Below are positions 9,366 to 60,572 of a stretch of 64,000 nucleotides of DNA, piece by piece. Source of the stretch: Clostridia bacterium (lineage in GTDB: Bacteria > Bacillota > Clostridia > TANB77 > CAG-465). The position numbers and the translations under genes were made by a program. The notes under the pieces are model-generated. The model did not search any database. It saw nothing but the letters and a program-made list of their open reading frames with translations, and was not told the origin of the DNA. The stretch's first letter is position 1. The number at the start of each line of letters is the position of its first letter. The stretch lies in assembly GCA_045534225.1 (NCBI GenBank), contig JAZSJJ010000001.1, positions 54,800 to 118,799 on the forward strand, read 5' to 3'.

Positions 9366-11042
9366 ATGGAAGAACTAAATGTAAAACTTGCAAATTTAAT
9401 ATTTCCAGAAATAACTGAAACAATAGAAGACCTAGAAAAAAGATTTCCTAAAAGAAATCTTCCTGAAGGTGCAGAGGTAACTCGTTTCGCACCTTCTCCA
9501 ACAGGTTTCTTACACATTGGTGGACTATTTGGTTCATTAATAGATATGAGAGTTGCCAACCAATCTGGTGGTAAATTCATACTAAGAATAGAAGACACAG
9601 ATAAAAAACGTGAAGTAGAAAATGGAATAACATTACTTGTTAAAGAATTAAAAGCTTTCAATATAAATAATGACGAAGGTGTAACAGGTGAGGATACTGA
9701 AATAGGAGAATACGGTCCTTACAAACAAAGCGCAAGAGAATACATATATAAAGTATGTGCTAAAGAGCTTATTAAACGCGGTAGAGCTTATCCTTGTTTC
9801 TGTACTGCAGAAGAATTAGACAAGCTTCGTGAAGCTCAAGAAAGAAGCAAACAAATACCAGGATATTATGGTACATTTGCTAGATGCAGAAACTATACTG
9901 TAGAAGAAGCAATAGCTAAAATAGAAGCTGGAGATAAATATGTTGTTAGATTTAGATCTTTAGGTTCTCATATGAGAAAAGTTAAAGTTCAAGATATAAT
10001 ACGTGGTAAAATTGAAATGGCAGAAAATGATCAAGATATCGTAATAATAAAATCTGATGGATTACCAACATATCACTTTGCACACGCAGTAGATGATCAC
10101 TTTATGAGAACAACTATTGCAGTAAGAGGAGAAGAATGGATACCATCATCTGCACTTCACTTAGACCTGTTTAATGCTTTAGGATTTGAACAAGTTAAAT
10201 ATGCTCATACTCCAACTATTATGAAAAACGATAATGGTTCTAAGAGAAAGTTGAGTAAAAGAAAAGATCCTGAATCAGCAGTATCATACTTTATAGAAGA
10301 AGGATATCCTGCAGACTCAGTTATAGAATATCTTCTTACAATAATTAACTCAGACTATGAGCTTTGGAGAAAAGCAAACAAAACAGCTAACTGGAGAGAA
10401 TTTGAAGTTAAATTAAACAAACTAAACAGTTCAGGCGCCCTATTTGATATGGTAAAACTTACAGACGTATCTAAAGAAGTAATATCTAGACTAAATAGCG
10501 CAGAACTTTTAGAATTAGTTTTAGCATGGGCTAAGGTTTATGACAATTCTTTATATGAATTATTAAATAACGACCTAGCTTACGCAAAACAAATACTAGG
10601 TATTGAAAGAGACAACGCAACAAAGATTAGAAAAGATATAGCTAAATACAAAGATATATTACCAAATATATTCTATATGTATGATGAATTATTTGAAAAA
10701 GATATAAAAGAAGGATATAACTTTAACCTTAATAATGGTAAATTAACAATGGATGATGTAAAACAAGTTATATCTAACTATATAGAACTTCACAAACAAG
10801 GATTAACAAAGGAAACTTGGTTTGAAGAAGTTAAGAAAGCGGCAGAAGGATTAGGCTATGTGGTTAATATGAAAGAATATAAAGCAAATCCAGATGCATA
10901 TAAAGGAAGTATAGCAGACGTTACAGGAATTATACGTGTAGCTATAACAAATAGACAAAACACACCAGATATATTCTTAATAATGGATGTGTTAGGAAGC
11001 GAGAAGTCGCTTGCAAGACTTGAAAAAGTTTTAAGTATATAA
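9366..11042 (+). CDS. gltX: Glutamyl-tRNA synthetase (unusually long at about 558 aa)
   Basis: Class I HIGH motif (PSPTGFLHIGG), a KLSKR (KMSKS-like) motif and a long C-terminal anticodon-binding extension. Confidence 0.9.
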   Translation: MEELNVKLANLIFPEITETIEDLEKRFPKRNLPEGAEVTRFAPSPTGFLHIGGLFGSLIDMRVANQSGGKFILRIEDTDKKREVENGITLLVKELKAFNINNDEGVTGEDTEIGEYGPYKQSAREYIYKVCAKELIKRGRAYPCFCTAEELDKLREAQERSKQIPGYYGTFARCRNYTVEEAIAKIEAGDKYVVRFRSLGSHMRKVKVQDIIRGKIEMAENDQDIVIIKSDGLPTYHFAHAVDDHFMRTTIAVRGEEWIPSSALHLDLFNALGFEQVKYAHTPTIMKNDNGSKRKLSKRKDPESAVSYFIEEGYPADSVIEYLLTIINSDYELWRKANKTANWREFEVKLNKLNSSGALFDMVKLTDVSKEVISRLNSAELLELVLAWAKVYDNSLYELLNNDLAYAKQILGIERDNATKIRKDIAKYKDILPNIFYMYDELFEKDIKEGYNFNLNNGKLTMDDVKQVISNYIELHKQGLTKETWFEEVKKAAEGLGYVVNMKEYKANPDAYKGSIADVTGIIRVAITNRQNTPDIFLIMDVLGSEKSLARLEKVLSI

Positions 11043-11078: not shown

Positions 11079-13862
11079 ATGGAAAATGAGAAAAAGAACT
11101 ATTCTGAAACACTAAATCTTCCAAAAACTGAATTCCCAATGAGAGGGAATCTTCCAGAAAGAGAACCAGCTGTTTTAGAAAAACAAAATGAAGTAAACGT
11201 ATACAAAAAATTATTAGAGAAAAACAAGAATACAGGTAAGACATTTATGTTACACGATGGACCACCATATGCAAACGGTAACATACATTTAGGTCATGCC
11301 TTTAATAAGATACTAAAAGACATTATTATAAAATACAAAAATATGTCAGGATATTATGCACCATTTATCCCAGGATGGGACACACATGGTCTTCCAATCG
11401 AAAAGAAAGTAGAACAAGTACTTAAAATAAGCAAAGATATGGTTGGAGTTCCTGAGTTTAGAAGAAAATGTGAAGCTTATGCTTTAGAACAAGTTGCTCT
11501 TCAAGAGGGTGGATTCAAACGCCTTGGAGTATTAGCAGATTACGAAAACAAATATGTAACTCTAGCTCACGATTTTGAAGTAGAACAAATTAAAGTATTT
11601 GCAGATATGTACAAAAAAGGATATATCTACAGAGACTTAAAACCAGTTTATTGGTGTGAAGACTGTAGAACAGCCTTAGCAGAAGCAGAAATCGAATACG
11701 AAGACGATACTGCAACAAGTATATTCGTTAAATTCAATGTTGTAGATGACAAAGGATTATTTACAGGAGTAGTAGATTTAAGCACACTATACTTTGTAAT
11801 TTGGACTACAACACCTTGGACAATGCCTGGTAACCAAGCAGTTACTGTAAATCCAGAATTTGATTATAGCATTGTTAAAGTAGGAGAAGAACACTATGTA
11901 CTTGCAACTGAAATGGTAGAATCAGTAATGAAAGAAGCTGGAATTGAAGCTTACACAGTACTAGATAAAACATTTAAAGGTGCTGAGCTAGAAAATATTT
12001 GGTTGAAACATCCAATGTTAGATAAAAAATCTAGAGTAATCTTAGGTTCAGATAATGATCTATTAGTTACACTTGATGCTGGTACTGGTCTAGTACATAC
12101 AGCTCCAGGACATGGACATGAAGACTATCTTGCATGTAAACGTTATGGAGATATAGAAATCATATGCCCAGTAGATGAAAAAGGATATATGACAGCTGAA
12201 GCTGGCGAACTAGAAGGCATGAAATATACTGATGCTAACAAAAGAGTAATCGAAGCTCTAGGTGAGTCTGGCGCGTTACTAGCTTCAAAACAATTAACTC
12301 ACCCATACCCACACTGTTGGAGATGTCACAAACCAGTTATATACAGAGCTAAAACTCAATGGTTTGCATCTGTTAAAGAATTTAGAGATGAAGCACTAGA
12401 AGCTGCAAAAACAGTTAAGTGGTATCCAAAATGGGGAGAAGACAGAATGCTTAACATGCTTAAAGACAGAGGAGACTGGTGTATTTCTCGTCAAAGAGTA
12501 TGGGGTGTTCCAATTCCAATATTCTATTGCGCAGACTGTGGTAAAGAATTAATTAATGAACAAACAATAGAGTTATTAAACAAGATATTTAAAGAACAAG
12601 GAACAAACGCTTGGTATGAATTATCTCCTGAAGAATTACTTAAGGGATATACTCATACTTGCGAATGTGGATGTAAAGAACTTGTTAAAGAAACAGATAT
12701 CATGGACGTTTGGTTCGACTCTGGTTCAAGCCATTTTGCAGTTCTAAACGATAAATTTGGTTTAACTTGGCCTGCAGACCTTTACTTAGAAGGAAATGAC
12801 CAATATAGAGGATGGTTCCAATCATCACTTCTTACATCAGTTGCTGTTAATGGAAAAGCACCATACAGAGAAAACGTAACACACGGATTCCTAATTGATG
12901 AAGATAAGAGAAAAATGTCTAAGAGTCTTGGTAATGGTGTAGATCCACTTAAAGTTTGTAACGAATTTGGCGCAGACATATTAAGATTATGGACAGTATC
13001 ATCAGACTACCATGCAGACGTTAAAGTATCTAACGATATCATAAAAGGTGTTGCAGAAGTATACAAGAAGATAAGAAATACAGCAAGATTTATGCTAGGA
13101 AACTTATCAGACTTTGAACCAAATACAGAATATGTAGAATATAGCTCAAGAGATGAACTAGACAAATACATTATGTACAAAACAAATAATCTTGTAAAAG
13201 ACTGTCTAGCTGGATATGACGAATACTCATTCCATACAGTATTTAATGCAATCCATAAATTCTGTACAGCAGATTTAAGTTCTAGATACTTAGATGTTGT
13301 TAAAGACAGATTATATACATTAAACGCTAAAGATGAACTTCGTAAGAGCATTCAATCCACAATGTATGATGTATTAAAAACTATGACAGCACTTTTAACA
13401 CCAATACTTTCATTTACAACAGAAGAAATCTGGGGTTATATGACTCTTAAAGATGAAGATAAAGTTGAATCTGTACTTCTTGCAGATATGCCTAAGGTAA
13501 ATGATATGTATGATGATGAAGCTTTAGCAGCTAAATGGGATGAAATATATGAATTAAGAGATGCTATACTTGTAGATCTTGAAAAAGCAAGAGCTGAAAA
13601 GATAGTAGGACACCCACTAGATGCTATGGTTACAATCTATGATAATGAAGCTAAGGTAGCTAAATTAACAGAGCTTAAAGATATTATTGAAATGATATTA
13701 ATAGTATCTAAAGTGGAAGTTAAAGTTGGAGATAGACGCGTTGAAGTTACAAAAGCACCTGGAACTAAATGTGAAAGATGCTGGAAGTATAGCGAGGAAG
13801 TAGGAAATCATAAAGAACACAGTACAATCTGTCCAAGATGTATAGACGCTATAACTAAATAA
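11079..13862 (+). CDS. ileS: Isoleucyl-tRNA synthetase
   Basis: TLNLPKTEFPMRGNLP N-terminus, HIGH (NGNIHLGHA), KMSKS and a C-terminal Zn finger CERCW..CPRC. Only 36 nt separate it from gltX, so there is no room for a T-box leader. Confidence 0.9.
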   Translation: MENEKKNYSETLNLPKTEFPMRGNLPEREPAVLEKQNEVNVYKKLLEKNKNTGKTFMLHDGPPYANGNIHLGHAFNKILKDIIIKYKNMSGYYAPFIPGWDTHGLPIEKKVEQVLKISKDMVGVPEFRRKCEAYALEQVALQEGGFKRLGVLADYENKYVTLAHDFEVEQIKVFADMYKKGYIYRDLKPVYWCEDCRTALAEAEIEYEDDTATSIFVKFNVVDDKGLFTGVVDLSTLYFVIWTTTPWTMPGNQAVTVNPEFDYSIVKVGEEHYVLATEMVESVMKEAGIEAYTVLDKTFKGAELENIWLKHPMLDKKSRVILGSDNDLLVTLDAGTGLVHTAPGHGHEDYLACKRYGDIEIICPVDEKGYMTAEAGELEGMKYTDANKRVIEALGESGALLASKQLTHPYPHCWRCHKPVIYRAKTQWFASVKEFRDEALEAAKTVKWYPKWGEDRMLNMLKDRGDWCISRQRVWGVPIPIFYCADCGKELINEQTIELLNKIFKEQGTNAWYELSPEELLKGYTHTCECGCKELVKETDIMDVWFDSGSSHFAVLNDKFGLTWPADLYLEGNDQYRGWFQSSLLTSVAVNGKAPYRENVTHGFLIDEDKRKMSKSLGNGVDPLKVCNEFGADILRLWTVSSDYHADVKVSNDIIKGVAEVYKKIRNTARFMLGNLSDFEPNTEYVEYSSRDELDKYIMYKTNNLVKDCLAGYDEYSFHTVFNAIHKFCTADLSSRYLDVVKDRLYTLNAKDELRKSIQSTMYDVLKTMTALLTPILSFTTEEIWGYMTLKDEDKVESVLLADMPKVNDMYDDEALAAKWDEIYELRDAILVDLEKARAEKIVGHPLDAMVTIYDNEAKVAKLTELKDIIEMILIVSKVEVKVGDRRVEVTKAPGTKCERCWKYSEEVGNHKEHSTICPRCIDAITK

Positions 13863-13921
13863 ATATAACAAAATTATTTTCTGGACATAATATATATAAA
13901 GGATAATAGGTGAAAATATTA

Positions 13922-15091
13922 ATGGACAAAATTATATATGTAGACCATAGTGCTACAACATATGTAAAAAAAGAAGTTTTAGATGAAATGTTACCATACT
14001 TTACAGAGAAGTATGGTAATGCTTCATCACCATATAAAATAGGTGGAGATTCTAGAGAAGCTGTAGAAAAAGCAAGAGAACAAGTAGCAAAAGCAATTAA
14101 TGCAAAAGCGAATGAAATCTACTTTACTGCGGGCGGAAGTGAATCAGATAATATGATAATCCGTGGTATTGCTTATGCAAACAAAAACAAAGGCAATCAT
14201 ATTATAACTTGTAAAATAGAGCATCCAGCAGTTCTAGAAACTTGTAAAGCTTTAGAAAAAGAAGGCTTTGAAGTAACATATCTATCTGTAGATGAAAATG
14301 GCTTTATATCTCTAGATGAACTTAGAAATAGTATTAAGGATACAACTATTCTTGTTTCTATTATGTTTGTAAATAACGAAATAGGAACAATACAAAATAT
14401 TTCAGAAATAACTAAAATAACTAAGTTTAAAGGTATATATTTCCATACAGACGCTGTTCAAGCAGTAGGAAATGTAAATATTGATGTAGACGCATTAGGA
14501 ATAGATGCATTATCTATGTCTGCACACAAATTCTATGGACCAAAGGGAATAGGAGCAGCTTACATAAAAAAGACAGTTAAGTTTACTCCAATTATTACTG
14601 GCGGACACCAAGAAAAAGGTAAACGTGCTGGTACAGAAAATGTTCCTGCTATAGTGGGTATGGGTAAAGCAATAGAGCTTGCCGCAGCCAATATTGAATC
14701 ATACAACAAAAAGCTAATGGAACTTAGAGATTATACAATAGATAGAATTCTAAATGAAATTCCATATGTTAAGCTAAATGGGGATAGAAATTCTCGCCTT
14801 GCAGGTAGCGTAAATATATCTTTCAAAGGGATAGAAGGAGAATCTTTACTTCTTATGCTAGATATGAAGGGAATAGAGGCTTCTAGCGGAAGTGCTTGTA
14901 CATCTGGTTCTTTGGATCCATCGCATGTGCTTTTAGCTATCGGGCTTAAACATGAAATAGCGCACGGTTCATTAAGACTTTCTTATGGTGAATGCAATAC
15001 AATGGAAGATGCAAAGTATATTGTAGATTCTTTAATAGAAATTGTAGCAAGACTTAGAGAAATGTCTCCACTTGATGCAAGCGAAATGTAA
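13922..15091 (+). CDS. nifS: Cysteine desulfurase (NifS/IscS class V aminotransferase)
   Basis: MDKIIYVDHSATT start, PLP-Lys motif SMSAHKFYGPKG and the catalytic Cys loop SSGSACTSG. Confidence 0.85.
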   Translation: MDKIIYVDHSATTYVKKEVLDEMLPYFTEKYGNASSPYKIGGDSREAVEKAREQVAKAINAKANEIYFTAGGSESDNMIIRGIAYANKNKGNHIITCKIEHPAVLETCKALEKEGFEVTYLSVDENGFISLDELRNSIKDTTILVSIMFVNNEIGTIQNISEITKITKFKGIYFHTDAVQAVGNVNIDVDALGIDALSMSAHKFYGPKGIGAAYIKKTVKFTPIITGGHQEKGKRAGTENVPAIVGMGKAIELAAANIESYNKKLMELRDYTIDRILNEIPYVKLNGDRNSRLAGSVNISFKGIEGESLLLMLDMKGIEASSGSACTSGSLDPSHVLLAIGLKHEIAHGSLRLSYGECNTMEDAKYIVDSLIEIVARLREMSPLDASEM

Positions 15092-15190
15092 TAAAACATA
15101 AATTAAAATTGAAAATAATCCGAGAATGTGTTATAATATTTCTCGGATGTTTTTTAGTCCAAATAATAATTTATTTGAAAGGAGATAGTT

Positions 15191-15460
15191 ATGAAAAAAG
15201 CTATCGTTGTCTCGCTCGCTGTAATCGGAGGAATTACTGTTGCTTGTACCGCATTTGTGGGAATCGCAAGTGCTGTACAAGCAGCAAGAGCAAAAAAGCG
15301 TTATGAAAGCATGACTCCCGAAGAACGTGAGGCTCATAACAAGAGGATGGATGGCGTATTGGCAGCCATTTTCGATGCTTATGGCTTTGATAAGGCTAAA
15401 ACAGAGGCTCCAGTGGAAGCTGAAACAGAATCTGCTTTGGCAGAAGAAGTAACGGCTTAA
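15191..15460 (+). CDS. Small membrane protein (N-terminal TM, charged Ala/Glu-rich tail); GC-elevated (about 45%)
   Basis: AGGAGA RBS. The -10 TGTTATAAT is flanked by a perfect inverted repeat CCGAGAA..TTCTCGG. A terminator hairpin follows. Confidence 0.5.
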   Translation: MKKAIVVSLAVIGGITVACTAFVGIASAVQAARAKKRYESMTPEEREAHNKRMDGVLAAIFDAYGFDKAKTEAPVEAETESALAEEVTA

Positions 15461-23683: not shown

Positions 23684-23747
23684 TGTTTTTATTGACTAAA
23701 GGCAAAATATAAAATATACTATGTATATATGTGCAAAGGAGAAAAAA

Positions 23748-24902
23748 GTGAACAAGAAACAAGGAATATCATTAATAGTATTAGTAATAACTATAATAGT
23801 TATGATAATATTAGCGTCTGTAGTTGTTATTTCAATAAGCGATACAGGAATAATAAACAGAGCGAATCAAGCAGTAGACGAATCAAACGAGAAGCAGGTA
23901 CAAGATTTAGCTGCGTTGGTTTGGGCTGATTCTTTTATGACTGGAAAAAGGGGTGCTGAGTTAGAAGAAGATGTCTTAGACAAACTAAAAGACTATGTAG
24001 ATAAATATGAGATAATAGTTACAGATACAGGAGCTAGTGTAGTTAACAAAGATTCATTATTAAATACAACACTAGGACACTTAATTACAAGTGCCAAAGA
24101 CTATGGAAAAACTATAAATTATGAAGCGAACGGAGTAACAGATTGGAAAGTATTTTATCATACAGAAAACTATGTATATTTAATAGCCACTGAAGCATTA
24201 GCCATGGATCAACTGCCAATACAAAAGATGGCTGCAGAACATAAAATTCCGTTAGTAACAAAGCTTGTAACTAAACCGAATGGAACAACAAAAGTAATTG
24301 GACATATAAATCTTCAAAGCAGTGCTACCCACAGAGATGTGATAGCGGCAACAATACAACGCCCAGAATTATGGATGGCCAATTTTGGGGATTATTCAAA
24401 AAATTATGGCAAGCTAATATCTTGTTATTTAGATGAAACAATATGGGATTTATATAAGAATACAACATCAAGATACAGTGAGTACATAGAAGGAGCTATA
24501 GGCACTCCCACTGTCGAAATGTTTGTAGCAAGTTGGAATGCTAAAAGAGAAGCAACTGGAGATTTTGAAACGTATAACAAGAAACTTGCATTAGTATCTG
24601 ATGGTAGTAAAGGATACTATGTAAATGATATAACTTCTGGTGAGCCTGCTACAAGTAATACGTCTTACCAATATATCACGCCAACCGATACTTTATATAC
24701 ATGGGATTATTCAAGCCACAATTCGGATATATATTTAGCGGGAATGTCTACCTTCGATAACGGTTCGCAAATGATATTACAAATGGGGTATGGTATTAGA
24801 TATTTCGGAAATAATGGTGCAACAGGTGGATTAAGACCTGTAATTTGCTTAAGAGCAGATGTGCCAGCAGGAACAGGAATAAAAACAGATTTTATAATAT
24901 AA
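23748..24902 (+). CDS. Pilin-like N-terminal module protein, paralogue 2 of 3. The C-terminal domain differs from paralogue 1 and is related to paralogue 3.
   Basis: AAAGGAG RBS then GTG 23748 (NKKQGISLIVLVITIIVMIILA). The N-terminal 65 aa are conserved with 163 and 59496. C-terminal PVICLRA..AGTG..TDF motif shared with paralogue 3. Confidence 0.55.
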   Translation: MNKKQGISLIVLVITIIVMIILASVVVISISDTGIINRANQAVDESNEKQVQDLAALVWADSFMTGKRGAELEEDVLDKLKDYVDKYEIIVTDTGASVVNKDSLLNTTLGHLITSAKDYGKTINYEANGVTDWKVFYHTENYVYLIATEALAMDQLPIQKMAAEHKIPLVTKLVTKPNGTTKVIGHINLQSSATHRDVIAATIQRPELWMANFGDYSKNYGKLISCYLDETIWDLYKNTTSRYSEYIEGAIGTPTVEMFVASWNAKREATGDFETYNKKLALVSDGSKGYYVNDITSGEPATSNTSYQYITPTDTLYTWDYSSHNSDIYLAGMSTFDNGSQMILQMGYGIRYFGNNGATGGLRPVICLRADVPAGTGIKTDFII

Positions 24903-27441: not shown

Positions 27442-28773
27442 ATGGCAAAGAAAACAAATAATGGTAACAATGATTATGATATATTTTGTTCTTTTTGTGG
27501 AAGATTTAAAGATGAGGTCGGCAAGATGATTGCCGGCCCTAATGGCATCTTTATATGTGAAGACTGTATAGATGTTTGTAATAAGGTAATATTAGAAGAT
27601 TTAATGCTTGGTGAACAAGAGGAAATGGAAAGAGCCGGTTCTAATGGTAAGGCGAAAGCAAAACCTGAAACAAGTGCTTCTTTAACAAGCAAAAAAGAAC
27701 TAATAGAAAACACAGAGCTTCCTACACCAGAACAAATAAAGAAAATACTAGATGAATATGTAGTAGGACAAGATTCTGCTAAAAAGATACTTGCAGTTGC
27801 TGTATATAACCATTATAAAAGAATAAGAAATCTAGATAAAATAGATGATGTAGAAATACAAAAGAGTAATATATTAATGCTAGGACCTACTGGATGTGGT
27901 AAAACACTTATGGCACAAACACTTGCTAAAGTATTAAGAGTACCATTTGCAATAGCAGACGCTACAACCCTTACTGAAGCTGGTTATGTAGGTGAAGACG
28001 TAGAAAACATATTACTTCGTCTAATACAAGCGGCGGACTGGGATATATCTAAAGCAGAAAAAGGTATCATATATATAGATGAGTTAGATAAGATTACAAG
28101 AAAATCTGAAAACCCATCTATAACAAGAGATGTTAGTGGAGAAGGCGTACAACAAGCACTTCTTAAAATAATAGAAGGAACAACTGCTAATGTTCCTCCG
28201 GGGGGCGGAAGAAAACATCCTCAACAAGAATATTTAAAGATAGATACTACAAACATATTATTTATATGTGGTGGTGCATTCGAAGGCTTAGATAAGATTA
28301 TAGAAGCTAGAGTTGGTGAAAAATCTATGGGATTTGGATCTAAACTTGAAGACAAGAAAGATATAGATTATGGAACAATATTTAGTAAGGTATTACCAAA
28401 TGATATTATTAAATTTGGTCTTATACCAGAATTAGTAGGACGTCTTCCAATAATAACATCTTTATCTCAATTAGATGAAAAAGCATTGGTAGATATTCTA
28501 ACTAAACCTAAGAATTCTATACTTAAGCAATATAAAAAACTACTTAAAATGGATAATGTTGAATTAGACTTTAGAAAAGATGCTTTAGAAGAAATAGTAA
28601 GTCTTGCAATAGAAAGAAAAACTGGAGCAAGAGGTCTTAGAGCAATACTTGAAGAGACTATGCTTAATGCAATGTATGATATACCATCTAATAAGAATAT
28701 TAGTAAATGTATAATTACTAAAGAAGTGGTTACAAAAGAATTAGGACCTATATATGAATATAGAAATCAATAA
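27442..28773 (+). CDS. clpX: ATP-dependent Clp protease ATP-binding subunit ClpX
   Basis: Zn-binding C4 N-terminus (CSFCGR..CEDC), Walker A GPTGCGKT and the pore loop GYVGEDV. Confidence 0.95.
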
Positions 28774-28814
28774 TTAATAGTATAATAATTAATAATATTT
28801 AGATATGAAAGAAC

Positions 28815-28845
28815 CCGTAAATTAATACGGGCTCTTATTTTTTTA
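28815..28845. terminator. Bidirectional terminator after clpX
   Basis: cccgtaaattaatacggg hairpin followed by a T-run. Confidence 0.7.
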
Positions 28846-29187
28846 CTCAAAAGCTTCGCTCATGTGAGCAAGTCTTTTAGCATTCCATGAGATGTTTTTG
28901 GCCAAAATTGTCTTAGCTAAAGGAAGGAAGATATCATCATCCTTGATAGCATCGAAGAAACCTTTGAAGTTTGAAAAACTGGTATCTTCACACATAAATC
29001 GGAATACTCTTTCGAAATATTCTGTTGTAAGTTCTAGTTGTCCCTTGCCGGGTTTACGGTATCTGCAGTTTGGCAGATCATCGCTTAAATATTCCTTCCA
29101 AGCCAACATTACAATCTTGCCGTCTAAGCAAGTAAAAGTGTAATGGGTGGGGTTTTTCTTCGAATCAACACATGAAAAGGTCTGCAT
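28843..29187 (-). CDS. Hypothetical small protein, paralogue A of a tandem pair; GC-elevated (about 40%)
   Basis: Shares an FxxxC-DxxF-x-KGF...D-xF scaffold with the 29315 ORF. Has its own RBS (AAAAGGAGAAAC) and terminator. Confidence 0.45.
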   Translation of the reverse strand: MQTFSCVDSKKNPTHYTFTCLDGKIVMLAWKEYLSDDLPNCRYRKPGKGQLELTTEYFERVFRFMCEDTSFSNFKGFFDAIKDDDIFLPLAKTILAKNISWNAKRLAHMSEAFE

Positions 29188-29314
29188 TTTGTTTCTCCTT
29201 TTAAATTATTAATAAGATTTTTTGAAAATGTATATGAATTATATCACAAAACATAAGATTTATCAAATTAGACATATATAAAAAGAGCTCACAGATTACT
29301 GCGAGCCCTTGTTT

Positions 29315-29671
29315 TTACGCTTCTTCGAGCGCAAGTGACATTCTACGGATTTTATTTGCCATGGAACCAATGTATCCAGCAATAATTCTTTCTGCATCCT
29401 TTCTAAATGTCTCATCCATATTCAGTTGTTCAAGAAATCCCTTATAGTCAGTAAAGACAGGATCGGTGCAGACCACTCTAAATGCCTTATCAAACAAAGG
29501 CTTGGAGATAGGGTGCTGCCCTTTTGTGGGATTGGCGTACGCTTCTACGGCAACTACTTTGCTGGAAGCTTTACATACAGAAAGCTTTACCAGTTTGCCT
29601 TCGGAAAATTTGAAGTCGTACCTAATTTTACTGTGATGGTCGGTTGCTTGAAAAGTCTTCAATCTAAACAC
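29315..29671 (-). CDS. Hypothetical small protein, paralogue B of the tandem pair; GC-elevated
   Basis: RBS TTAAGGAG before the ATG. The terminator is a gagctcacag..gcgagccc hairpin. Similar to 28843. Confidence 0.45.
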   Translation of the reverse strand: MFRLKTFQATDHHSKIRYDFKFSEGKLVKLSVCKASSKVVAVEAYANPTKGQHPISKPLFDKAFRVVCTDPVFTDYKGFLEQLNMDETFRKDAERIIAGYIGSMANKIRRMSLALEEA

Positions 29672-29806
29672 TCCTTAAATTATTATAGTGGCTTATAATA
29701 CTGACCATATTTATTATAACATATAAATAGAGCAGAGGTCAAGGAAAATAGTAGACATAATTTCGCTAAATAGATATTTTTGTAAAAACGAGAGGAAAGA
29801 AAAAAA

Positions 29807-29867
29807 GAACAAATATTCGATAATTTTAGCAAAAAGTGTTGACAAACAATTGTTCTTTATATATAAT
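29807..29867 (+). promoter_or_regulatory. Consensus sigma-A promoter (TTGACA-17-TATAAT) with two one-mismatch LexA (Cheo-box-like GAAC-N4-GTTC) dyads
   Basis: TTGACA at 29839-29844 and TATAAT at 29862-29867. Dyads GAACAAATATTC (29807-29818) and AACAATTGTTC (29845-29855, inside the spacer). Confidence 0.45.
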
Positions 29868-29898
29868 TAAAGCAGAACAAAGGTTCGGAGGTAATATT

Positions 29899-30195
29899 AT
29901 GAAAAGATATAGAGTAAATTATAAAAGAGTATGTACAAATATAATAGTATTAGCAGTTATATTCATGATATTTAACGCTTTTACCAATATTACATTTGGT
30001 TCAAGAAATATACAAACTAAAACAATACGTGTAGAACGCAATGATACTTTATGGAGCATCGCTTCAGATATATGCAAAGCTTCTACCGAAGAATTAAACG
30101 TACAAAATGTTATTATACAAATTAAGCATATAAACAACTTAACAGAAAGTACAATATATTGTGGTCAAGAATTGAATGTTCCTATATATATGTAG
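29899..30195 (+). CDS. Small TM-LysM protein, a candidate YneA-like SOS cell-division inhibitor
   Basis: GGAGG RBS. Basic N-terminus then one TM helix then a C-terminal LysM (IRVERNDTLWSIASDI..LNVP). About 98 aa, the same architecture as B. subtilis YneA. Confidence 0.5.
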   Translation: MKRYRVNYKRVCTNIIVLAVIFMIFNAFTNITFGSRNIQTKTIRVERNDTLWSIASDICKASTEELNVQNVIIQIKHINNLTESTIYCGQELNVPIYM

Positions 30196-30293
30196 AAATA
30201 ATATATAATTCCCTTTAGGCAGCTATTAATTTAGTTGCCTTATTTTTATACATATGATAATATGTATTTGTAACACATATATGAGGTGATTGT

Positions 30294-31538
30294 ATGGATG
30301 AAAATAAGAAAAAAGTTGTAGAAAATGATATAAATATAGAAAACCAAGAAAATAATACCAATACTGAAAATACTGAGATAAATCGACTTCCTAAAAGGCC
30401 AAATAAGGCGTTTTTTATTTCAATAGGTGTAATATGTGGTCTGTTATTATGTGCAATTTATATGATTATTCGTCTACCAGATGAAATTCCAACTACATTA
30501 GCTAATACGAGAATTGAGAGGTTTAAGGGTAAAGATTATTACATTTATACATACAATGGTGTATATAGCGGTGAACATCAAAATGTAACATACTTATTAG
30601 ATGCAGAAAATAAAAATGCAAATGAGCATCTTAAAGAAGTTATGACATATGATCAATACGTAGAGTTTTGTACAGAAAGAAATATAGATATTAAATATAC
30701 TGACACAAACAAAAATTATATTGTATTATCTTATACTAGTTATAGCCATTGTTATGGTAGACTTGCAGATGTTGAAAATCTAGGTAAAGTAATAGCACTA
30801 TATGTTTGGGATCAAATAAAAGGAGTTCCTAGTCCTTCTATAGTACATGGATATGCTATAATAATACCTACAGATGCTAGTACACAAACTATAGTTAATG
30901 TTGTACCTATGTATATTGAGCAAGAATTTGAAAAGATTACTAATGCAATAGAGTTCCCCAATATATTAAATCAAGGAGATATGATGGTTAAAAAACCTGT
31001 TATATATCTATACCCTACAAAAGATACTAAAGTAGATGTAAAACTTGTAAATAAGGAGCTGTTAACTTGTACATATCCAAAATACACAAATGGATGGTCT
31101 GTACTTGCTAAACCGAATGGAGATTTAACATATATAGAAACAGGAAGAAGCTTGTATTCGTTATATTATGAGGCGGATAGTTTAATAGACTTTAAAGTTA
31201 CAGATGAAGGCTTTGTAATTAAAGGTGAAGATTCTGCTACATTCTTAGAAGAAAAACTAGAAATATTAGGTTTAAACGCGCATGAAACAGAAGAATTCAT
31301 TATATACTGGTTACCTAAATTAGAAGCTAATGAATATAATTATATAAGATTTGCTACTAAAGAGGAAATTGATGCTAATATGCCTTTAGAGGTTACTCCA
31401 AATCCAGATAGTGTAATTAGAGTCCTAATGACATTTAAAGGCTTAAATTCGCCTATAAGCGTCAAGGAACAAGTATTAGAAACACCTAAAAGAGATGGAT
31501 TTGTTTTAGTAGAGTGGGGCGGTACAGAAATTAAGTAA
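30294..31538 (+). CDS. Hypothetical membrane-anchored protein with a large extracytoplasmic domain
   Basis: Polar Asn/Glu-rich N-terminus, a single TM helix and then about 340 aa with no recognised family. A hairpin terminator lies at about 31588-31615. Confidence 0.4.
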   Translation: MDENKKKVVENDINIENQENNTNTENTEINRLPKRPNKAFFISIGVICGLLLCAIYMIIRLPDEIPTTLANTRIERFKGKDYYIYTYNGVYSGEHQNVTYLLDAENKNANEHLKEVMTYDQYVEFCTERNIDIKYTDTNKNYIVLSYTSYSHCYGRLADVENLGKVIALYVWDQIKGVPSPSIVHGYAIIIPTDASTQTIVNVVPMYIEQEFEKITNAIEFPNILNQGDMMVKKPVIYLYPTKDTKVDVKLVNKELLTCTYPKYTNGWSVLAKPNGDLTYIETGRSLYSLYYEADSLIDFKVTDEGFVIKGEDSATFLEEKLEILGLNAHETEEFIIYWLPKLEANEYNYIRFATKEEIDANMPLEVTPNPDSVIRVLMTFKGLNSPISVKEQVLETPKRDGFVLVEWGGTEIK

Positions 31539-31636
31539 TTATACTTATATAATGTATGATATATATAATAAAATATAAAATAATAAAGAGGTGCTTAAAA
31601 ATATAAGCATCTCTAACTATATATATAATATGTATA

Positions 31637-32596
31637 TTATTTTAATTTATTTAATGGATTATTATCTATAGCAGATTTAACTTCATCACTATCTATATGA
31701 GTATATATTTGAGTTGTAGCTATTGTTTCATGTCCTAATACTTGTTGTAATGTTCTAATATCTACACCAGCGTGTTTATGCATTAATGTAGCTGCAGTGT
31801 GTCTAAGCTTATGTGGTGTATATTTTTTGGGATCAAGCCCAGCACTTATTATATATTGTTTAACCATTATTTCTACCATTCTAGGAGATATACGTTTATA
31901 CTTTTTACTTATAAATAATGCGCGTCTATCGTCGCCTTTAACCTTATCAACCGGTCTAACCTTAAGATAAGCTTCAATAGCGTCTAAACAGGCCTTATTT
32001 AGGTGCACAGAGCGTTCTTTGTTACCTTTACCAATAACGGACAATGTATCGCCTTTAATATGTTCTAAATTGATTCCTACAAGCTCAGAAAGACGCAAAC
32101 CACAGTTTAGAAAGACTGTAAGGATAGCATAATCTCTTTCTTTGAACTCGCCTTGGACAGAGTGGAGTAGGGCAAGTGACTCATCTAGATTTAAATATTT
32201 TGGTAATCTTTTTTCTAATTTTGGTGCTTCAAGCCCAGAAGTTGGATTTCTTTCAATTTTTTTAGAAATATCACATAAATATTTATAAAATGATTTAATT
32301 GATGAAATTTTACGAGCTCTTGAAATTGCTTTAGTATTTTTATCATATAAATAATTATATATATCTGAAGTTTCTACAGATTTAAAAAAATTTAAATCTA
32401 AATCTGAAATATCAATTTCTTTATAATTTTCAATTTTAATATTATATTTATCACGTTTAATAAATTGAAAAATATCTCTAAGATCATAATAATATTCATT
32501 AACAGTATTTTTAGATCTGTTTTTAGTAATGATTAGATAATTCTTAAGGTAATCTTGCAAAATTACCGGCAAATCGTCATAAGACGGATGTTTCAT
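31637..32596 (-). CDS. Tyrosine site-specific recombinase (XerC/XerD-like integrase)
   Basis: C-terminal catalytic motifs R..HxxR..Y (RHTAATLM..LGHETIATTQIYTHI) and an N-terminal SAM-like core-binding domain. GGAGGT RBS before ATG 32596. Confidence 0.8.
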   Translation of the reverse strand: MKHPSYDDLPVILQDYLKNYLIITKNRSKNTVNEYYYDLRDIFQFIKRDKYNIKIENYKEIDISDLDLNFFKSVETSDIYNYLYDKNTKAISRARKISSIKSFYKYLCDISKKIERNPTSGLEAPKLEKRLPKYLNLDESLALLHSVQGEFKERDYAILTVFLNCGLRLSELVGINLEHIKGDTLSVIGKGNKERSVHLNKACLDAIEAYLKVRPVDKVKGDDRRALFISKKYKRISPRMVEIMVKQYIISAGLDPKKYTPHKLRHTAATLMHKHAGVDIRTLQQVLGHETIATTQIYTHIDSDEVKSAIDNNPLNKLK

Positions 32597-33060
32597 AAAT
32601 ACCTCCAAAAAGTGACGCTCTAGAATCGATTTTAAGACGTTTTTATTAATGGGGCCATATAGTTTGACCTTGAAAAAAAGGCCCCTAAAACGCCAAAATG
32701 GAAAATAGGGCTAAAATGACTAATTTTGTATATAGACACATATATAATGTATAAAATTTTATAAAATGTATATACAGATATATAATTATGTAGTAGAATA
32801 ATTAGAGTAAGACAAGTAAGAGAATATATATGTATAAATAAATAAAAAATATATATACGTAATTAGTCAAAGAGCCTAGAAAGGCTTAATATACATATAT
32901 AATATCAGAAGAGGGCTTCATATGCAATAGTTCCTTCTCCAAAATACACAAAATATCTATTTTGCGAAATAACACATAACAAAATAAGAGCCTTTCTTCT
33001 TATGGACTACTTCTTCTATTATGTGTTAATTTCGTTTTTTTAATTTTGTATTCTACTTTA

Positions 33061-33336
33061 CTAATCTATTATTTTTAGTTCTTTATACTCTTCAAATGTT
33101 TCTTTACTTTTATTTATTAAATAAAATAATAACATTCTTAATTCTGAATAATAATTTTCAAAATTATCTGTATCATAAAATTCTTGTATGTCCATATGCT
33201 CTACCTTACCGTAATACATGAACCTACACAGGAGCCCTATACTACATATTAAGACACTTGCATTATGCATATTGAGTTTCAGTATTATATGAACATTTCC
33301 TTGTTTTTTACCGCGTTTAACGCCAATCTCAGCCAT
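33061..33336 (-). CDS. Hypothetical small protein with an apparently chimeric composition
   Basis: Strong RBS AAAGGAGGGAT. The N-terminal 45 aa have moderate GC and the C-terminal half is very AT-rich. Confidence 0.3.
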   Translation of the reverse strand: MAEIGVKRGKKQGNVHIILKLNMHNASVLICSIGLLCRFMYYGKVEHMDIQEFYDTDNFENYYSELRMLLFYLINKSKETFEEYKELKIID

Positions 33337-33472
33337 TTTATCCCTCCTTTCTACTGCAGTTTTAGATATATTATGTATACTTTGTTGTTGAAAGCAGCTT
33401 ATATTTATGATATAATAATCTCCGTAATTAATATTTTATTCCAATAAATAAATTTAAAGGAGATTTAATCGT

Positions 33473-33979
33473 ATGACCTCAAACAAGCAATTCTCACTCA
33501 TCCAGACAGGCAATTTTACAAAAAAGCCTTCTGCTAATCCTTTTAGGATCAAAAATTTCTTTTTGAATGTTGAGTTTAATTATATGGGCTCAAAGGAATT
33601 TTTGATATCTGCTCTTCGTTTAGCTGCAGCTCGTATAATGCACAATAAACATAGGTATGCTATAAGACATACTGGTATCTATGTAAACGATACTGAGGAG
33701 CTTCTTCTCTACTGCGATGTAGAAAATTCTATTACAATTACTAATATGCTAAAAGAATACGTTGCTAAGCCGTATGAACTTGTAGGGCAATCTGCTCCAA
33801 AGCTTACTTCAGATTTATTCTGGTGGTGTATAGACAAATCTCCTATGTTTGGTGATTGGTTTGCATTTACCTCTAATAATATTAGTAGCTTTAAGGAAAG
33901 CCTGGATGCAGCAGATGGAATTTGGATGATGATGCCTAACTATGAACGCGAAATCGCATATCGTAAAGCAGTTTTGTAA
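33473..33979 (+). CDS. Hypothetical protein (168 aa), divergent from the 33061 ORF; GC-elevated
   Basis: AAAGGAG RBS. A TTGAAA/GATATAAT promoter lies in the shared intergenic region. No family recognised. Confidence 0.4.
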   Translation: MTSNKQFSLIQTGNFTKKPSANPFRIKNFFLNVEFNYMGSKEFLISALRLAAARIMHNKHRYAIRHTGIYVNDTEELLLYCDVENSITITNMLKEYVAKPYELVGQSAPKLTSDLFWWCIDKSPMFGDWFAFTSNNISSFKESLDAADGIWMMMPNYEREIAYRKAVL

Positions 33980-34128
33980 TAACAAAAAGCTCACTCATAA
34001 CAATGGGTGGGCTCTTTTTATGTTCATATATATGATATAAATAAAATCAAACCCCTACTAAAAGTAGAGGCTGATATAAGAGGTTATATATGAAAACTAA
34101 AGTTTTCTCTAGTCTGCATTCTGTTTAA

Positions 34129-34659
34129 TTAGTTCCAGATACCTAAACCTTGGTTTCTAGCACTTATTTGAGCTTTTGCTAATACATCTAATTTATTTAT
34201 GTTATTTCTTTCTGCTCTAAGGTTTGCTAAACCATCTTCTAATAATGTTTCATTATAGAAATCATTTTCGATATATAAGTATCCATAAGTTTTACCTTTT
34301 TCTGATTTAACTGTATCGAAGTCTACTATAACATTTTTACCAGTTAAGTCTAATGACATTCTCTTAGTTAATTTTTCAGTATTTTTTGTAGATTCTATAC
34401 CAATTAGATTAATTTCATGTTCTTCACCGTTTGATACTAAAGTTACTGTTATACCATTTACTTCTTTTACTGTCCCTTTTATAGCTTGCTTTGTATATGT
34501 GTATGCATCTTTTTCTACGGGAGTAACGCTAGCTACTTTGTTCTCTGGAGTAAATCCTATAACTAATCCAGTAACTATTAATGCTATTGATATAATAATG
34601 ACCGCTACTGCTGGTCCATATTGTTTAATATAAAACATTTTCTTATTTTCATAATACAT
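34129..34659 (-). CDS. Membrane-anchored staphylococcal-nuclease (SNase/thermonuclease) family protein
   Basis: N-terminal TM helix and an SNase-like core (LIGIE..YGYLYIENDFYNETLLEDGLANL..). GGAGGTAG RBS before ATG 34659. Confidence 0.65.
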   Translation of the reverse strand: MYYENKKMFYIKQYGPAVAVIIISIALIVTGLVIGFTPENKVASVTPVEKDAYTYTKQAIKGTVKEVNGITVTLVSNGEEHEINLIGIESTKNTEKLTKRMSLDLTGKNVIVDFDTVKSEKGKTYGYLYIENDFYNETLLEDGLANLRAERNNINKLDVLAKAQISARNQGLGIWN

Positions 34660-34827
34660 ATTTACTACCTCCATAAAAAATAAAGTCACATAATTTGAGC
34701 CATACTATAATATTATGATACCATAAATATTATGTAAAGTCAATATTATGTAACCAATTATCTATTATTTTCTTCATTTATGTTATATATATTGTTGCGT
34801 TTTTATAAATTATATTGCAATTTTATG

Positions 34828-35547
34828 TTAAATATCTGCGTTGTGCCATACATTTTGGACATCATCATTAGCTTCTAATTTGTCTATAAAGTTTTCAAAT
34901 TTTTCTGCTTCTTCATCAGATAGTTCTTTCTTTAATGTAGGAACCATTTTAATTTCAGCTTCTACTGTAGTATAACCATTCTTTTCTAAGTATTCGCTTA
35001 TCTTAAAGTATGATTCTGGTGCTGCAGTTATTTCTATATATCCATCTTCACTTACAAAATCTTCTGCTCCAACATCTAATACTTCAAGCATTAGTGTATC
35101 TTCATCTATACCAGCGCTTTCTAGTACAAATACAGATTTCTTAGTGAACATGTAACCTACAGAACCTGTTTGTCCCATGCTACCACCGCTTCTATCAAAT
35201 ATGCATCTGATATCTGCTGCAGCTCTATTTTTGTTATCTGTCATAGCGTCAACTATTACAGCTACACCACAAGGACCAAATCCTTCATAAGATATTTCTT
35301 CATAATTTGTTGCATCAGCTGCTCCTGAAGCTTTTTGAATACATCTATTAATGTTATCGTTTGGCATATTATTTGATTTAGCCTTAGCTATAACATCTCT
35401 TAATTTTGCGTTACTTGCCGGATCAGGACCACCTTGCTTTACAGCAACTGTTATTTCTTTACCTAATTTTGAATAAATTTGGGCTTTTTTACCGTCAACG
35501 GCTTCTTTTCTTCTTTTTATATTTGCCCATTTACTATGTCCACTCAT
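34828..35547 (-). CDS. yebC: YebC/PmpR family DNA-binding transcriptional regulator
   Basis: MSGHSKWANIKRRKEAVDGKKAQIYSKL N-terminus. Confidence 0.9.
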   Translation of the reverse strand: MSGHSKWANIKRRKEAVDGKKAQIYSKLGKEITVAVKQGGPDPASNAKLRDVIAKAKSNNMPNDNINRCIQKASGAADATNYEEISYEGFGPCGVAVIVDAMTDNKNRAAADIRCIFDRSGGSMGQTGSVGYMFTKKSVFVLESAGIDEDTLMLEVLDVGAEDFVSEDGYIEITAAPESYFKISEYLEKNGYTTVEAEIKMVPTLKKELSDEEAEKFENFIDKLEANDDVQNVWHNADI

Positions 35548-59495: not shown

Positions 59496-60515
59496 TTATT
59501 TTATTAAAGAAAAATCTGTTGTTGTTCCTGCTTTAGCAAGTATTGAAGCTTTTAAGCACACAACAGGATATATACCATAAGCTTCAGTATTAGTATATGA
59601 CGACTCATGCTTTATAGCCGAATCACCCGCTACCAGCACGCCAGTATTGCTATTACCCACAGGCGAAGTTGTCCAACAATAACCACTTTTAGGTATATAT
59701 AAGCCGTCATTCATAAATCCTGATCCGTTTATATTATAACCCCATTTAGTATCACTTAAAACCGGTGTTATGCGTGGCATATAACCCTTAGCGTTCCAGC
59801 CAGCAGCTAGTAATTCTATAGGCGGACCACCTATCGCACCAACAACATTATCCCCATAGTCTGTATAATTAGCAAATGTCGAATATGTTCTTATTAAATA
59901 TGCAACTCCTCGTGCGCTATATGTATATGGATCTGTTATATCAACTTTTTCATTATTGCCTACTCTAAACACATCGTAAAGTTCTAATTCTGCCGCCGTA
60001 AGTTCGTCTGGTGAAACTCCAAGCGAATTAACGTTTCCAAAGGTGCCATAATGTCCAACCTTCTCGCCAGCTATTAAATACACATATTCTTCGTTGTGAT
60101 AATATATTCGCCAATTATTATATGTAGCGCCATTCACAGTTACCGTATAGTCTATCGTATCACCATAATTATCTGGTGTGATTAGTGAGCCTAAAGGTGT
60201 TCTATTTTTAACGCTTGAAATTGATATATTTGTGTTAGAAATACTAATATCCCAGTTAGCATCTGTTATGCCTTGTTCGTCAAGTCGTAATTTTACCTCA
60301 TTTACTAGTTCTTGATCTGTTAGTCCCTTCATATACGAATCCGCCCATATTAATGCCGCTAAATCTTGCACTTGCTTTTCATTAGTTAATTCTACCGCTT
60401 GATTAGCTCTCTCTATTATACCGGTATTACTAAGCGTTATTAATATACTCACTGATAGTATTATCATAACTATTATTGTTATTACTAATACTATTAAAGA
60501 TATTCCTTTTTTCAT
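59496..60515 (-). CDS. Pilin-like N-terminal module protein, paralogue 3 of 3, embedded in the EPS operon
   Basis: MKKGISLIVLVITIIVMIIL.. The N-terminal 65 aa are conserved with 163 and 23748. The C-terminal region is related to paralogue 2 (YVYLIA, PVVCLKA..AGT..TDF). AAGGAGAAAC RBS. Confidence 0.55.
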   Translation of the reverse strand: MKKGISLIVLVITIIVMIILSVSILITLSNTGIIERANQAVELTNEKQVQDLAALIWADSYMKGLTDQELVNEVKLRLDEQGITDANWDISISNTNISISSVKNRTPLGSLITPDNYGDTIDYTVTVNGATYNNWRIYYHNEEYVYLIAGEKVGHYGTFGNVNSLGVSPDELTAAELELYDVFRVGNNEKVDITDPYTYSARGVAYLIRTYSTFANYTDYGDNVVGAIGGPPIELLAAGWNAKGYMPRITPVLSDTKWGYNINGSGFMNDGLYIPKSGYCWTTSPVGNSNTGVLVAGDSAIKHESSYTNTEAYGIYPVVCLKASILAKAGTTTDFSLIK

Positions 60516-60572
60516 CTTCTGTTTCTCCTTAATAAAAATATAGCATTATATATTTAATATTTTTACAATACC

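Follow-up and report, generated by a model that had tools for sequence, protein, structure and literature searches.

The 6-kb segment that lies between clpX and yebC in the middle of the 64-kb window analysed here (the window being the whole stretch of DNA) is best read as the replication terminus in the chromosome of an uncultured, low-GC member of the Clostridia. It appears to be built around a module formed by xer, the gene of a Xer-type tyrosine recombinase, and a dif-type site, called here site A. In this reading, to which we give a probability of about 0.8, the site is non-canonical, is exploited by phages and is able to flip its own cassette by means of a second, inverted copy, called here site B. 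A description of this site or module was not found in the literature searched. An earlier note on the same DNA had taken the segment for an integrated or decaying mobile island carrying its own integrase.

Over the window, GC skew amounts to about +0.2 between 1 and 31 kb and to about -0.2 between 33 and 64 kb, and AT skew behaves likewise. In parallel, nearly all long open reading frames (ORFs) are on the plus strand up to 31.5 kb and nearly all on the minus strand from 33 kb onwards. The change-over of both GC skew and gene strand lies at about 32.9 kb, in the middle of the window, and the maximum of the cumulative G-C curve falls at 32915, that is 28 bp from site A (32943-32970). In each of the eight other loci tested the skew also changes sign at xer (20-kb views, the view of the window being 64 kb). 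With the sign of the skew taken from the established strand bias of Firmicutes, the joint switch of skew and coding strand indicates that leading strands converge here, which points to a terminus and not to an insertion into an operon. The two flanks would therefore belong to opposite replichores, so that nothing would have been interrupted. This strand-linked switch of GC skew, AT skew and coding strand within the segment had not been brought up in the earlier note.

Site A lies about 350 bp upstream of xer and reads, on the minus strand from 32970 to 32943, ATTTCGCAAAA-TAGATA-TTTTGTGTATT, with 11-bp arms in inverted symmetry around a 6-bp centre. In an alignment of the regions upstream of xer from seven genomes, the block containing the site is conserved even in a species whose Xer is only 59% identical. 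The arms ATT(T/G)CGCAAAA and TTTTGT(G/T) are kept across lineages and are near mirror images of each other (CGCAAAA against CACAAAA in the reverse complement), while the centre varies between TAGATA, TATCTA, TAATAA and TATAAA among the five lineages compared (L005, L007, L008, L009 and L022; the labels L001-L032 denote the contigs or loci that were compared with the window). Conserved arms around a variable centre are the anatomy of a tyrosine-recombinase core site. A 24-bp core, ATTTCGCAAAATAGATATTTTGTG, is identical in the 11 close contigs that reach the site (L001-L004, L006, L019, L020, L024 and L029-L031). The distance between xer and the site is about 240-375 bp in the relatives examined, except in L022 where it is about 930 bp. 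At up to three mismatches site A is unique in the window, 0 matches being expected by chance, and its near-copy, site B, is found 3.2 kb away in a subclade. The sites known from other bacteria are not found here: the best match to the canonical dif of Bacillus subtilis or Escherichia coli has at least 9 mismatches in the window and at least 8 in the loci of the relatives, and searches of the window with difSL and difH gave nothing better than 9 mismatches.

The same sequence is both the insertion point of a prophage in L019/L020 and the crossover point of an inversion. The natural recombinant junctions, namely the attL and attR of the prophage and the hybrid junction of the inversion in three contigs, indicate that recombination happens at the site A sequence. 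In L008, the centre (TATCTA, site at 9647-9670) is the reverse complement of the one present in most relatives, with the orientation of the arms relative to xer unchanged. Given the near symmetry of the arms, the polarity of the site would be effectively reversed in that species.

In L019 and L020, whose Xer is 89% identical to that of the window, the variable spot beside site A holds an element of 6.65 kb. It encodes a rolling-circle Rep (Pfam Phage_CRI; PHROG replication protein) whose phage relatives in GenBank are limited to named filamentous phages (Ff-type, IKe, WC36-1) and to phages of similarly small genome size (6-8 kb), together with two coat-size proteins of about 45 aa, a 590-aa protein and a Zot-like pI ATPase. 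A recombinase gene is not found in the element. At either end the prophage is bounded by a 21-bp core, TATTTCGCAAAATAGATATTT, in direct orientation. To the left, the junction runs on into the left chromosomal flank seen at the empty site of the window, and to the right into the right chromosomal arm and the xer promoter. In the attP reconstructed from these junctions, the left arm and the centre are shared with the chromosome and the right arm is degenerate, and the junction of a circular phage would include AAATGTATTTCGCAAAATAGATATTTCAACTAGCG. The lack of a recombinase, the flanking direct hybrid sites and the degenerate attP arm together are the signature of an integrative mobile element exploiting Xer (IMEX), integrated through the Xer of its host. 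The inovirus of L019/L020 thus appears to fit the IMEX definition, and the window seems to have kept only orf91, a homologue of its att-proximal gene. Of the viral contigs scanned for the core 19-mer none contained it, and a tblastn search of GenBank phages with the orf91-like gene of the phage gave no match. An additional half-site resembling the left arm, TTTTATTTCGCAAATTT, was seen at about 9562-9578 in L019, some 55 bp before attR, and might give the phage attP an additional binding site.

The orf91 product is 46% identical to the 109-aa product of the gene that ends the L019 prophage next to attR, 56% identical to that of a chromosomal 86-aa gene left of attL and 36% identical to that of a 119-aa gene of L008. 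A weak hint of an HTH_52 domain (E 0.029) came from a Pfam search run at E values up to 10. From its likeness to the att-proximal phage gene, orf91 is probably the remnant of an earlier phage that integrated at dif. The neighbouring orf168 is 35-87% identical in L002-L004 and L006. It has no tblastn match in L001, L005 and L007-L009, a blastp comparison of its product with the 107-aa gene found in its place in L019 gave no match, and Pfam, NCBIfam, PHROG and PADLOC returned nothing for it. The block that differs between close species spans about 32975-33995 and is missing or replaced in L001, L002, L004 and L006, and a different phage-like flank is found at the same site in L030/L031. This stretch of about 1 kb (33.0-34.0 kb) is the only true landing pad for mobile DNA in the segment.

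A search for inverted repeats found the second site, site B, at 29760-29787, between the promoters of p2 and of the yneA-like gene. It reads ATTTCGCTAAA-TAGATA-TTTTTGTAAAA and, together with site A, brackets a 3.2-kb block composed of the yneA-like gene, m414 and xer. Site B occurs at the same place and in the same orientation in L001-L004, L006, L021, L024 and L029-L031, and was not found in L005, L007-L009, L019 and L022. As it is confined to a subclade, the inversion is a derived feature. Contigs that share an identical protein of the orf91 family come in two forms: L024 has the order of the window, and L023 has the inverted one, with orf91 followed by the yneA-like gene and m412 (both plus strand) and by xer (minus strand). 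The alignment of L023 with L024 runs forward up to the site and reversed from the site onwards. The two are conspecific, with DNA identities of 100% for yebC, 99.6% for the SNase gene and 98.8% for xer, and the same m412-type allele is seen in both orientations. In L023, L025 and L028, which come from three samples, the left flank and arm of site A (CGCAAAA) are followed by TAGATA and then by the right arm and flank of site B (TTTTGTA TAGAATAGGG), leading into the yneA promoter. Overall, 11 sequences show the order of the window (the window itself, L001-L004, L006, L021, L024 and L029-L031) and three the inverted order (L023, L025 and L028). Before the hybrid junctions were found, the drift of the outer arms of site B had led us to consider it a dead relic, a view that was then dropped. 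In six contigs (L014, L021, L025, L026, L027 and L028) the sequence stops no more than about 100 bp from site A or from the hybrid junction, which suggests heterogeneity of strain or orientation within the samples.

The recombinase consists of only two Xer-type domains, SAM_1 (core-binding) and Phage_integrase in Pfam, in agreement with its earlier description as a Xer-like tyrosine recombinase. The best match in the PDB is E. coli XerD (9e-36), followed by archaeal XerA, with XerH distant (5e-13). The R, K, H-x-x-R, H and Y residues all align with those of XerD, and the stretches GLRLSEL, GKGNKER, HKLRH, LGH and IYTH are in register. Homologues are named "tyrosine recombinase XerC" at NCBI. 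From the tests run, the enzyme is assigned as Xer-type, but not as XerC, XerD, XerS or XerH. A promoter-like element that carries a TG was read from the sequence at 32899-32927, about 300 nt upstream of the xer start codon, and the same architecture with the promoter after the site is present in L005 and L007-L009. Closer to the gene, the surroundings of 32621-32634 contain a block ...CTTAAAATCGATT(C/T)TAGAGCGTC... that is invariant in all seven aligned sequences and in L007-L009. The near-palindrome within it, which L005 and L007-L009 have at the corresponding place, shows the consensus TA(A/G)AATCGATT(T/C)TA in the relatives, directly upstream of the xer ribosome-binding site, and may serve as an operator, autoregulatory or otherwise. 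At its core is AAAA-N4-TTTT, reminiscent of the dif arms. The whole non-coding stretch (32609-33060) is AT-rich, as had been noticed before, with a GC content of 0.22-0.27, and an Rfam search of it gave nothing relevant.

The three kinds of event can be brought under one mechanism. Xer monomers would bind the arms and two sites would synapse, after which the catalytic tyrosine would cut at the borders between arms and centre and strands would be exchanged through a Holliday junction. Site A would be present twice in a chromosome dimer, as direct repeats, and recombination between the repeats would give back monomers. A phage attP having the left arm and the centre in common with site A would allow the same reaction to integrate an integrase-less filamentous phage, for which the junctions are seen in sister strains. 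Between site A and the inverted site B, it would flip the 3.2-kb block with the yneA-like gene, m414 and xer, the hybrid junction being present in conspecific contigs. Operation by a single recombinase and control by FtsK would complete such a scheme, and both are inferred.

Several points weigh against this reading. The Xer protein stays below every NCBIfam cut-off for Xer equivalogs, with 232 bits for XerC against a cut-off of 335 (TIGR02224), 204.5 against 329.6 for XerD (TIGR02225), 197 and likewise below the cut-off for XerA, and 148 against 267 for XerS, the latter over the C-terminal half only. Only linkage and family membership lead us to infer that the adjacent Xer is the enzyme acting at the site, and dimer resolution itself is deduced. 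Since only 64 kb of the chromosome were seen, the skew switch could in principle be the breakpoint of a large rearrangement, and further Xer paralogues or a canonical dif may lie outside the window. In the search for polar motifs that could orient FtsK, no k-mer survived correction for multiple testing in the 64 kb; GAAGAAG, with a strand ratio of 29:1, is about what base skew predicts. As for the inversion, the outer arm positions of site B drift between species and site B may be only weakly active, and the reciprocal junction was not captured, L023 ending about 120 bp short of it.

The mobile island proposed earlier, about 6 kb long and inserted with its own integrase between clpX and its usual downstream neighbours, was suggested by the tyrosine recombinase, by several lineage-specific genes without known function (p1/p2, m414, orf168) and by the composition of the two small genes. 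The shift in GC content from about 40% to 27% was overstated. In 400-bp windows the small genes do reach 36-37.5% against 21-30% nearby, but values of 34-38% also occur elsewhere in the 64 kb, so that composition alone is not anomalous. Moreover, the backbone is shared by the relatives. In six species-level relatives (GTDB genomes, uncultured "Clostridia bacterium" metagenome-assembled genomes (MAGs), two of them labelled sheep rectum) the segment has a DNA identity of about 88-92%, and the order tig-clpP-clpX-(x)-yneA-like-(x)-xer-[site] is kept in the relatives examined, whose Xer is 58-100% identical. Even at Xer identities of 78, 69, 60, 59 and 58%, one side reads tig-clpP-clpX-(0-1 gene)-LysM/YneA-like-(0-2 genes)-xer, clpX preceding the yneA-like gene and xer in L005, L007, L008, L009, L019 and L022. 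The other side reads (variable)-SNase-yebC-SLT-polA in most of these distant relatives, with genes converging on xer. The SNase-yebC flank is kept in L007, L009, L019/L020 and L022 and is different in L008; the L005 contig ends before it. L032 was too short to be informative, and a Xer scan of metagenome contigs returned one short contig only. The lineage-specific genes are p1/p2, the 414-aa gene, orf91 and orf168. The search for direct repeats that would flank 28.8-34.7 kb as att sites gave only matches at chance level. No PADLOC match was obtained for the cargo proteins, and Pfam at E values up to 10 added only the weak HTH_52 hint for orf91. The PHROG matches were generic and not element hallmarks (lysM-motif and endolysin families for the LysM protein, integrase for Xer, a weak match to a nuclease family for SNase), with nothing for p1, p2, m414, orf91 and orf168. 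The conserved backbone, and a Xer-type enzyme that is chromosomal and whose gene has a dif-type site 350 bp upstream of it, at a skew switch where the flanks belong to opposite replichores, leave a 6-kb island unsupported, and we regard it as very improbable. The earlier interpretation is nevertheless partly supported, as the idea of mobile DNA holds for the kilobase beside site A, which varies between species.

Two other explanations concern the sites themselves. The A/B pair might be a programmed inversion switch altering the expression of the yneA-like gene, m414, xer or p2/orf91, with dimer resolution secondary or absent. Conspecific strains are found with either orientation and with an exact hybrid junction, several metagenome contigs break off close to a site as if orientations were mixed within samples, and m414 is hypervariable. 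In addition, there is no terminator-like hairpin between orf91 and site A, so that read-through from orf91 would enter different genes in the two states. Yet this read-through is all that would differ between the orientations: the promoter-like elements all move with their genes, which leaves no obvious ON/OFF logic. Furthermore, most of the clade (L005, L007-L009, L019 and L022) has site A and xer without site B, one orientation prevails by 11 to 3, and the outer arms of site B are not kept constant between species. Such a switch as the primary role is therefore unlikely. A far less credible view is that the 28-bp element is not a recombination site and only binds a transcription factor, as operator of the xer and yneA-like promoters. 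It is true that each copy precedes a promoter, and that both are oriented alike with respect to the gene that follows. However, the integrase-less prophage has its insertion point precisely inside the element, the core being duplicated, the crossover of the inversion maps inside it, and its centre varies (being flipped in L008) around fixed arms, as is typical of recombinase core sites. The terminus module remains the preferred reading.

Among known systems, the xerS-difSL pair of Streptococcus and Lactococcus (Le Bourgeois et al. 2007, PMC1914069; reviewed in PMC5357621) resembles the terminus module in that the recombinase gene is linked to its terminus site, and both were found through a conserved short sequence preceding a recombinase gene at a skew switch. 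The difSL arms TTTCCGAAAA and TTTTCTTGAAA (PMC5357621) are also closer to TTTCGCAAAA and TTTTGTGAAAA of the present site than canonical dif is, and in both cases the left arm is better conserved than the right. On the contrary, the protein has 319 aa here and 356 aa in XerS, the centre has 6 bp instead of the 11 bp of the 31-bp difSL, and the site lies about 240-930 bp upstream instead of within a block of about 50 bp directly before xerS. Action of a single recombinase is only a possibility here. The XerC/XerD-dif system (E. coli; CodV/RipX in B. subtilis) comes closest in sequence, in the 28-bp layout of 11+6+11, in its location at the terminus and in being exploited by integrase-less filamentous phages. 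It differs by its inner arms (CATAA-N6-TTATG, against CAAAA-N6-TTTTG here) and by the fact that xerC and xerD are normally unlinked to dif, whereas here the gene adjoins the site. XerH-difH of Helicobacter and Campylobacter shares the linkage of gene and terminus site, but the similarity to XerH is weak beside that to XerD. In several Clostridia, canonical dif prediction fails or gives implausible positions (PMC3025954); one survey found no dif in C. perfringens and C. beijerinckii, and its prediction for C. botulinum E3 (Alaska E43) lies about 174 degrees from the skew switch.

The inovirus of L019/L020 can be compared with the IMEX phages CTXphi, VGJphi and TLCphi (reviewed in PMC5357621). 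It shares with them the inovirus hallmarks, the lack of a recombinase, the direct dif/attP hybrids and an attP that keeps one arm and the centre with a degenerate second arm, and is distinguished by a Gram-positive-type uncultured Clostridia host and a non-canonical site. Few Gram-positive hosts of inoviruses had been reported up to 2023 (PMC10061712). As in the pdif modules of Acinetobacter plasmids (PMC11705084, PMC12907356), a block between two inverted Xer-type sites is found in either orientation. Here, however, the block is chromosomal and at the terminus, one of its sites is a candidate chromosomal dif, and it includes xer and carries no resistance cargo.

If the terminus reading is right, it provides a broad group of uncultured gut Clostridia (Xer identities of 58-100%; sources including sheep rectum and human gut) with a concrete, testable candidate dif and with the enzyme that probably acts on it. 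The site would mark the terminus in these MAGs and account for the contig breaks found there. It also documents filamentous prophages that would exploit Xer in this group, and a natural case in which an inverted second dif-type site would drive a chromosomal inversion including the xer gene, which bears on the control of Xer selectivity and on the origin of "dif modules". A bolder proposal can be put forward only tentatively, as we hold it to be rather doubtful. According to it, the module would be a third gene-linked and possibly single-recombinase Xer/dif type, after XerS/difSL and XerH/difH, across a large clade of uncultured gut Clostridia. The second site of the subclade would then make a programmed terminus switch flipping xer, an SOS division inhibitor and a hypervariable surface protein, and Gram-positive inoviruses would act as IMEXs.

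The features of the segment are collected in the table. The genes listed in the earlier note are present where it placed them, including the divergent pair orf91/orf168 and the SNase and yebC genes that follow it.

Table. Genes, sites and promoter-like elements between clpX and yebC (positions in the window)
Feature	Position	Strand	Remarks
clpX	27442..28773	+	left replichore (plus-strand, G-rich), of which it is the last conserved housekeeping gene
p1, 114 aa	28843..29187	-	paralogue of p2, lineage-specific
p2, 118 aa	29315..29671	-	site-B subclade; distant homologue in L019
Site B, second dif-type core	29760..29787	+	inverted relative to site A
yneA-like promoter region with three LexA (Cheo)-type boxes	29807..29886	+	
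YneA-like protein with transmembrane (TM) helix and LysM, 98 aa	29899..30195	+	true ATG at 29899
m414, membrane-anchored 414-aa protein	30294..31538	+	cargo of invertible block
xer, 319-aa Xer-type tyrosine recombinase	31637..32596	-	
Near-palindrome TAGAATCGATTTTA	32621..32634		5' of xer ribosome-binding site
Promoter-like element TTGCAT-17-TATTAT	32899..32927	-	reads towards xer
Site A, candidate dif	32943..32970	-	28 bp
Variable spot beside site A	32975..33995		candidate landing pad for Xer-exploiting elements
orf91	33061..33336	-	small protein adjoining site A
orf168	33473..33979	+	variable between species
Membrane-anchored SNase-family nuclease	34129..34689	-	first conserved gene of the right (minus-strand) replichore; Pfam SNase
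yebC	34828..35547	-	right-replichore housekeeping gene; NCBIfam YebC/PmpR 321 bits, above cut-off

The yneA-like gene had been described as encoding a YneA-like protein with a TM helix and a LysM domain. Pfam indeed gives a LysM match, and the NCBIfam YneA model scores 53 bits, under its cut-off of 60. The promoter, TTGACA-17-TATAAT at 29839-29867, is of the sigma-70 type with a 12/12 match and is surrounded and overlapped by Cheo-type boxes, three in all (29807-29818, 29844-29855 and 29875-29886). The window has a single perfect GAACN4GTTC, GAACAAAGGTTC, which stands directly before the ribosome-binding site of the yneA-like gene. The boxes are conserved out to L007, the relative with a 78% identical Xer. 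A yneA-like homologue is located between clpX and xer in every relative examined, and lexA is not adjacent. The protein is probably an SOS-induced division inhibitor, with putative control by LexA. A putative SOS division inhibitor is a conserved neighbour of xer and dif across the whole clade, and this neighbourhood might link damage-induced division arrest to dimer resolution.

The membrane anchoring proposed for the 414-aa protein is borne out by a predicted N-terminal TM helix at residues 38-59. The m414 family counts 4,396 homologues, which are membrane-anchored, roughly 380-415 aa long and all devoid of a Pfam domain. The AlphaFold2 (AF2) model of m414 is confident, with a predicted local distance difference test (pLDDT) score of 83.6, and gave no significant fold match in the PDB. 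The gene is hypervariable, with a DNA identity of 78% between L023 and L024 against 98.8% for xer and 100% for yebC, and was absent from L005, L007-L009, L019 and L022.

The two small minus-strand genes p1 and p2 are indeed paralogues (30.7% identity, E 3e-16). Among the sequences compared p1 is present only in the window, L001 and L002, and its product had no match in Pfam, NCBIfam, PHROG or PADLOC. It has its own promoter-like site. That of p2, TTGACC-18-TATAAT at 29742-29713, lies just outside site B, and a terminator-like hairpin is found downstream of p2.

On the other side of the segment, three direct repeats (T)TACATAATATT at 34709-34755 overlap the promoter-like site of the SNase gene (TTGACT-17-TATCAT). 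Conservation of this block is 97-100% in close relatives, and the relative with a 78% identical Xer still has a core of 29 bp. These repeats, which first resembled a XerD half-site, look like the operator of a regulator. As a triple ATATTATG they had been considered as a dif candidate, which was rejected in favour of a conserved direct-repeat element over the SNase promoter.

Finally, two variable places were observed away from the sites. L002 has a 1.5-kb insertion directly 3' of clpX (13805-15328 in that contig) that is not in the window. In the left replichore, the gene at 23721-24902 of the window encodes a 393-aa protein with a pilin-like hydrophobic N-terminus, and its paralogues are located at 59511-60542 and 178-465 (34% and 59% identity, respectively). 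It is missing or replaced in L001 and has a partial match in L003, and is thus a further variable locus.

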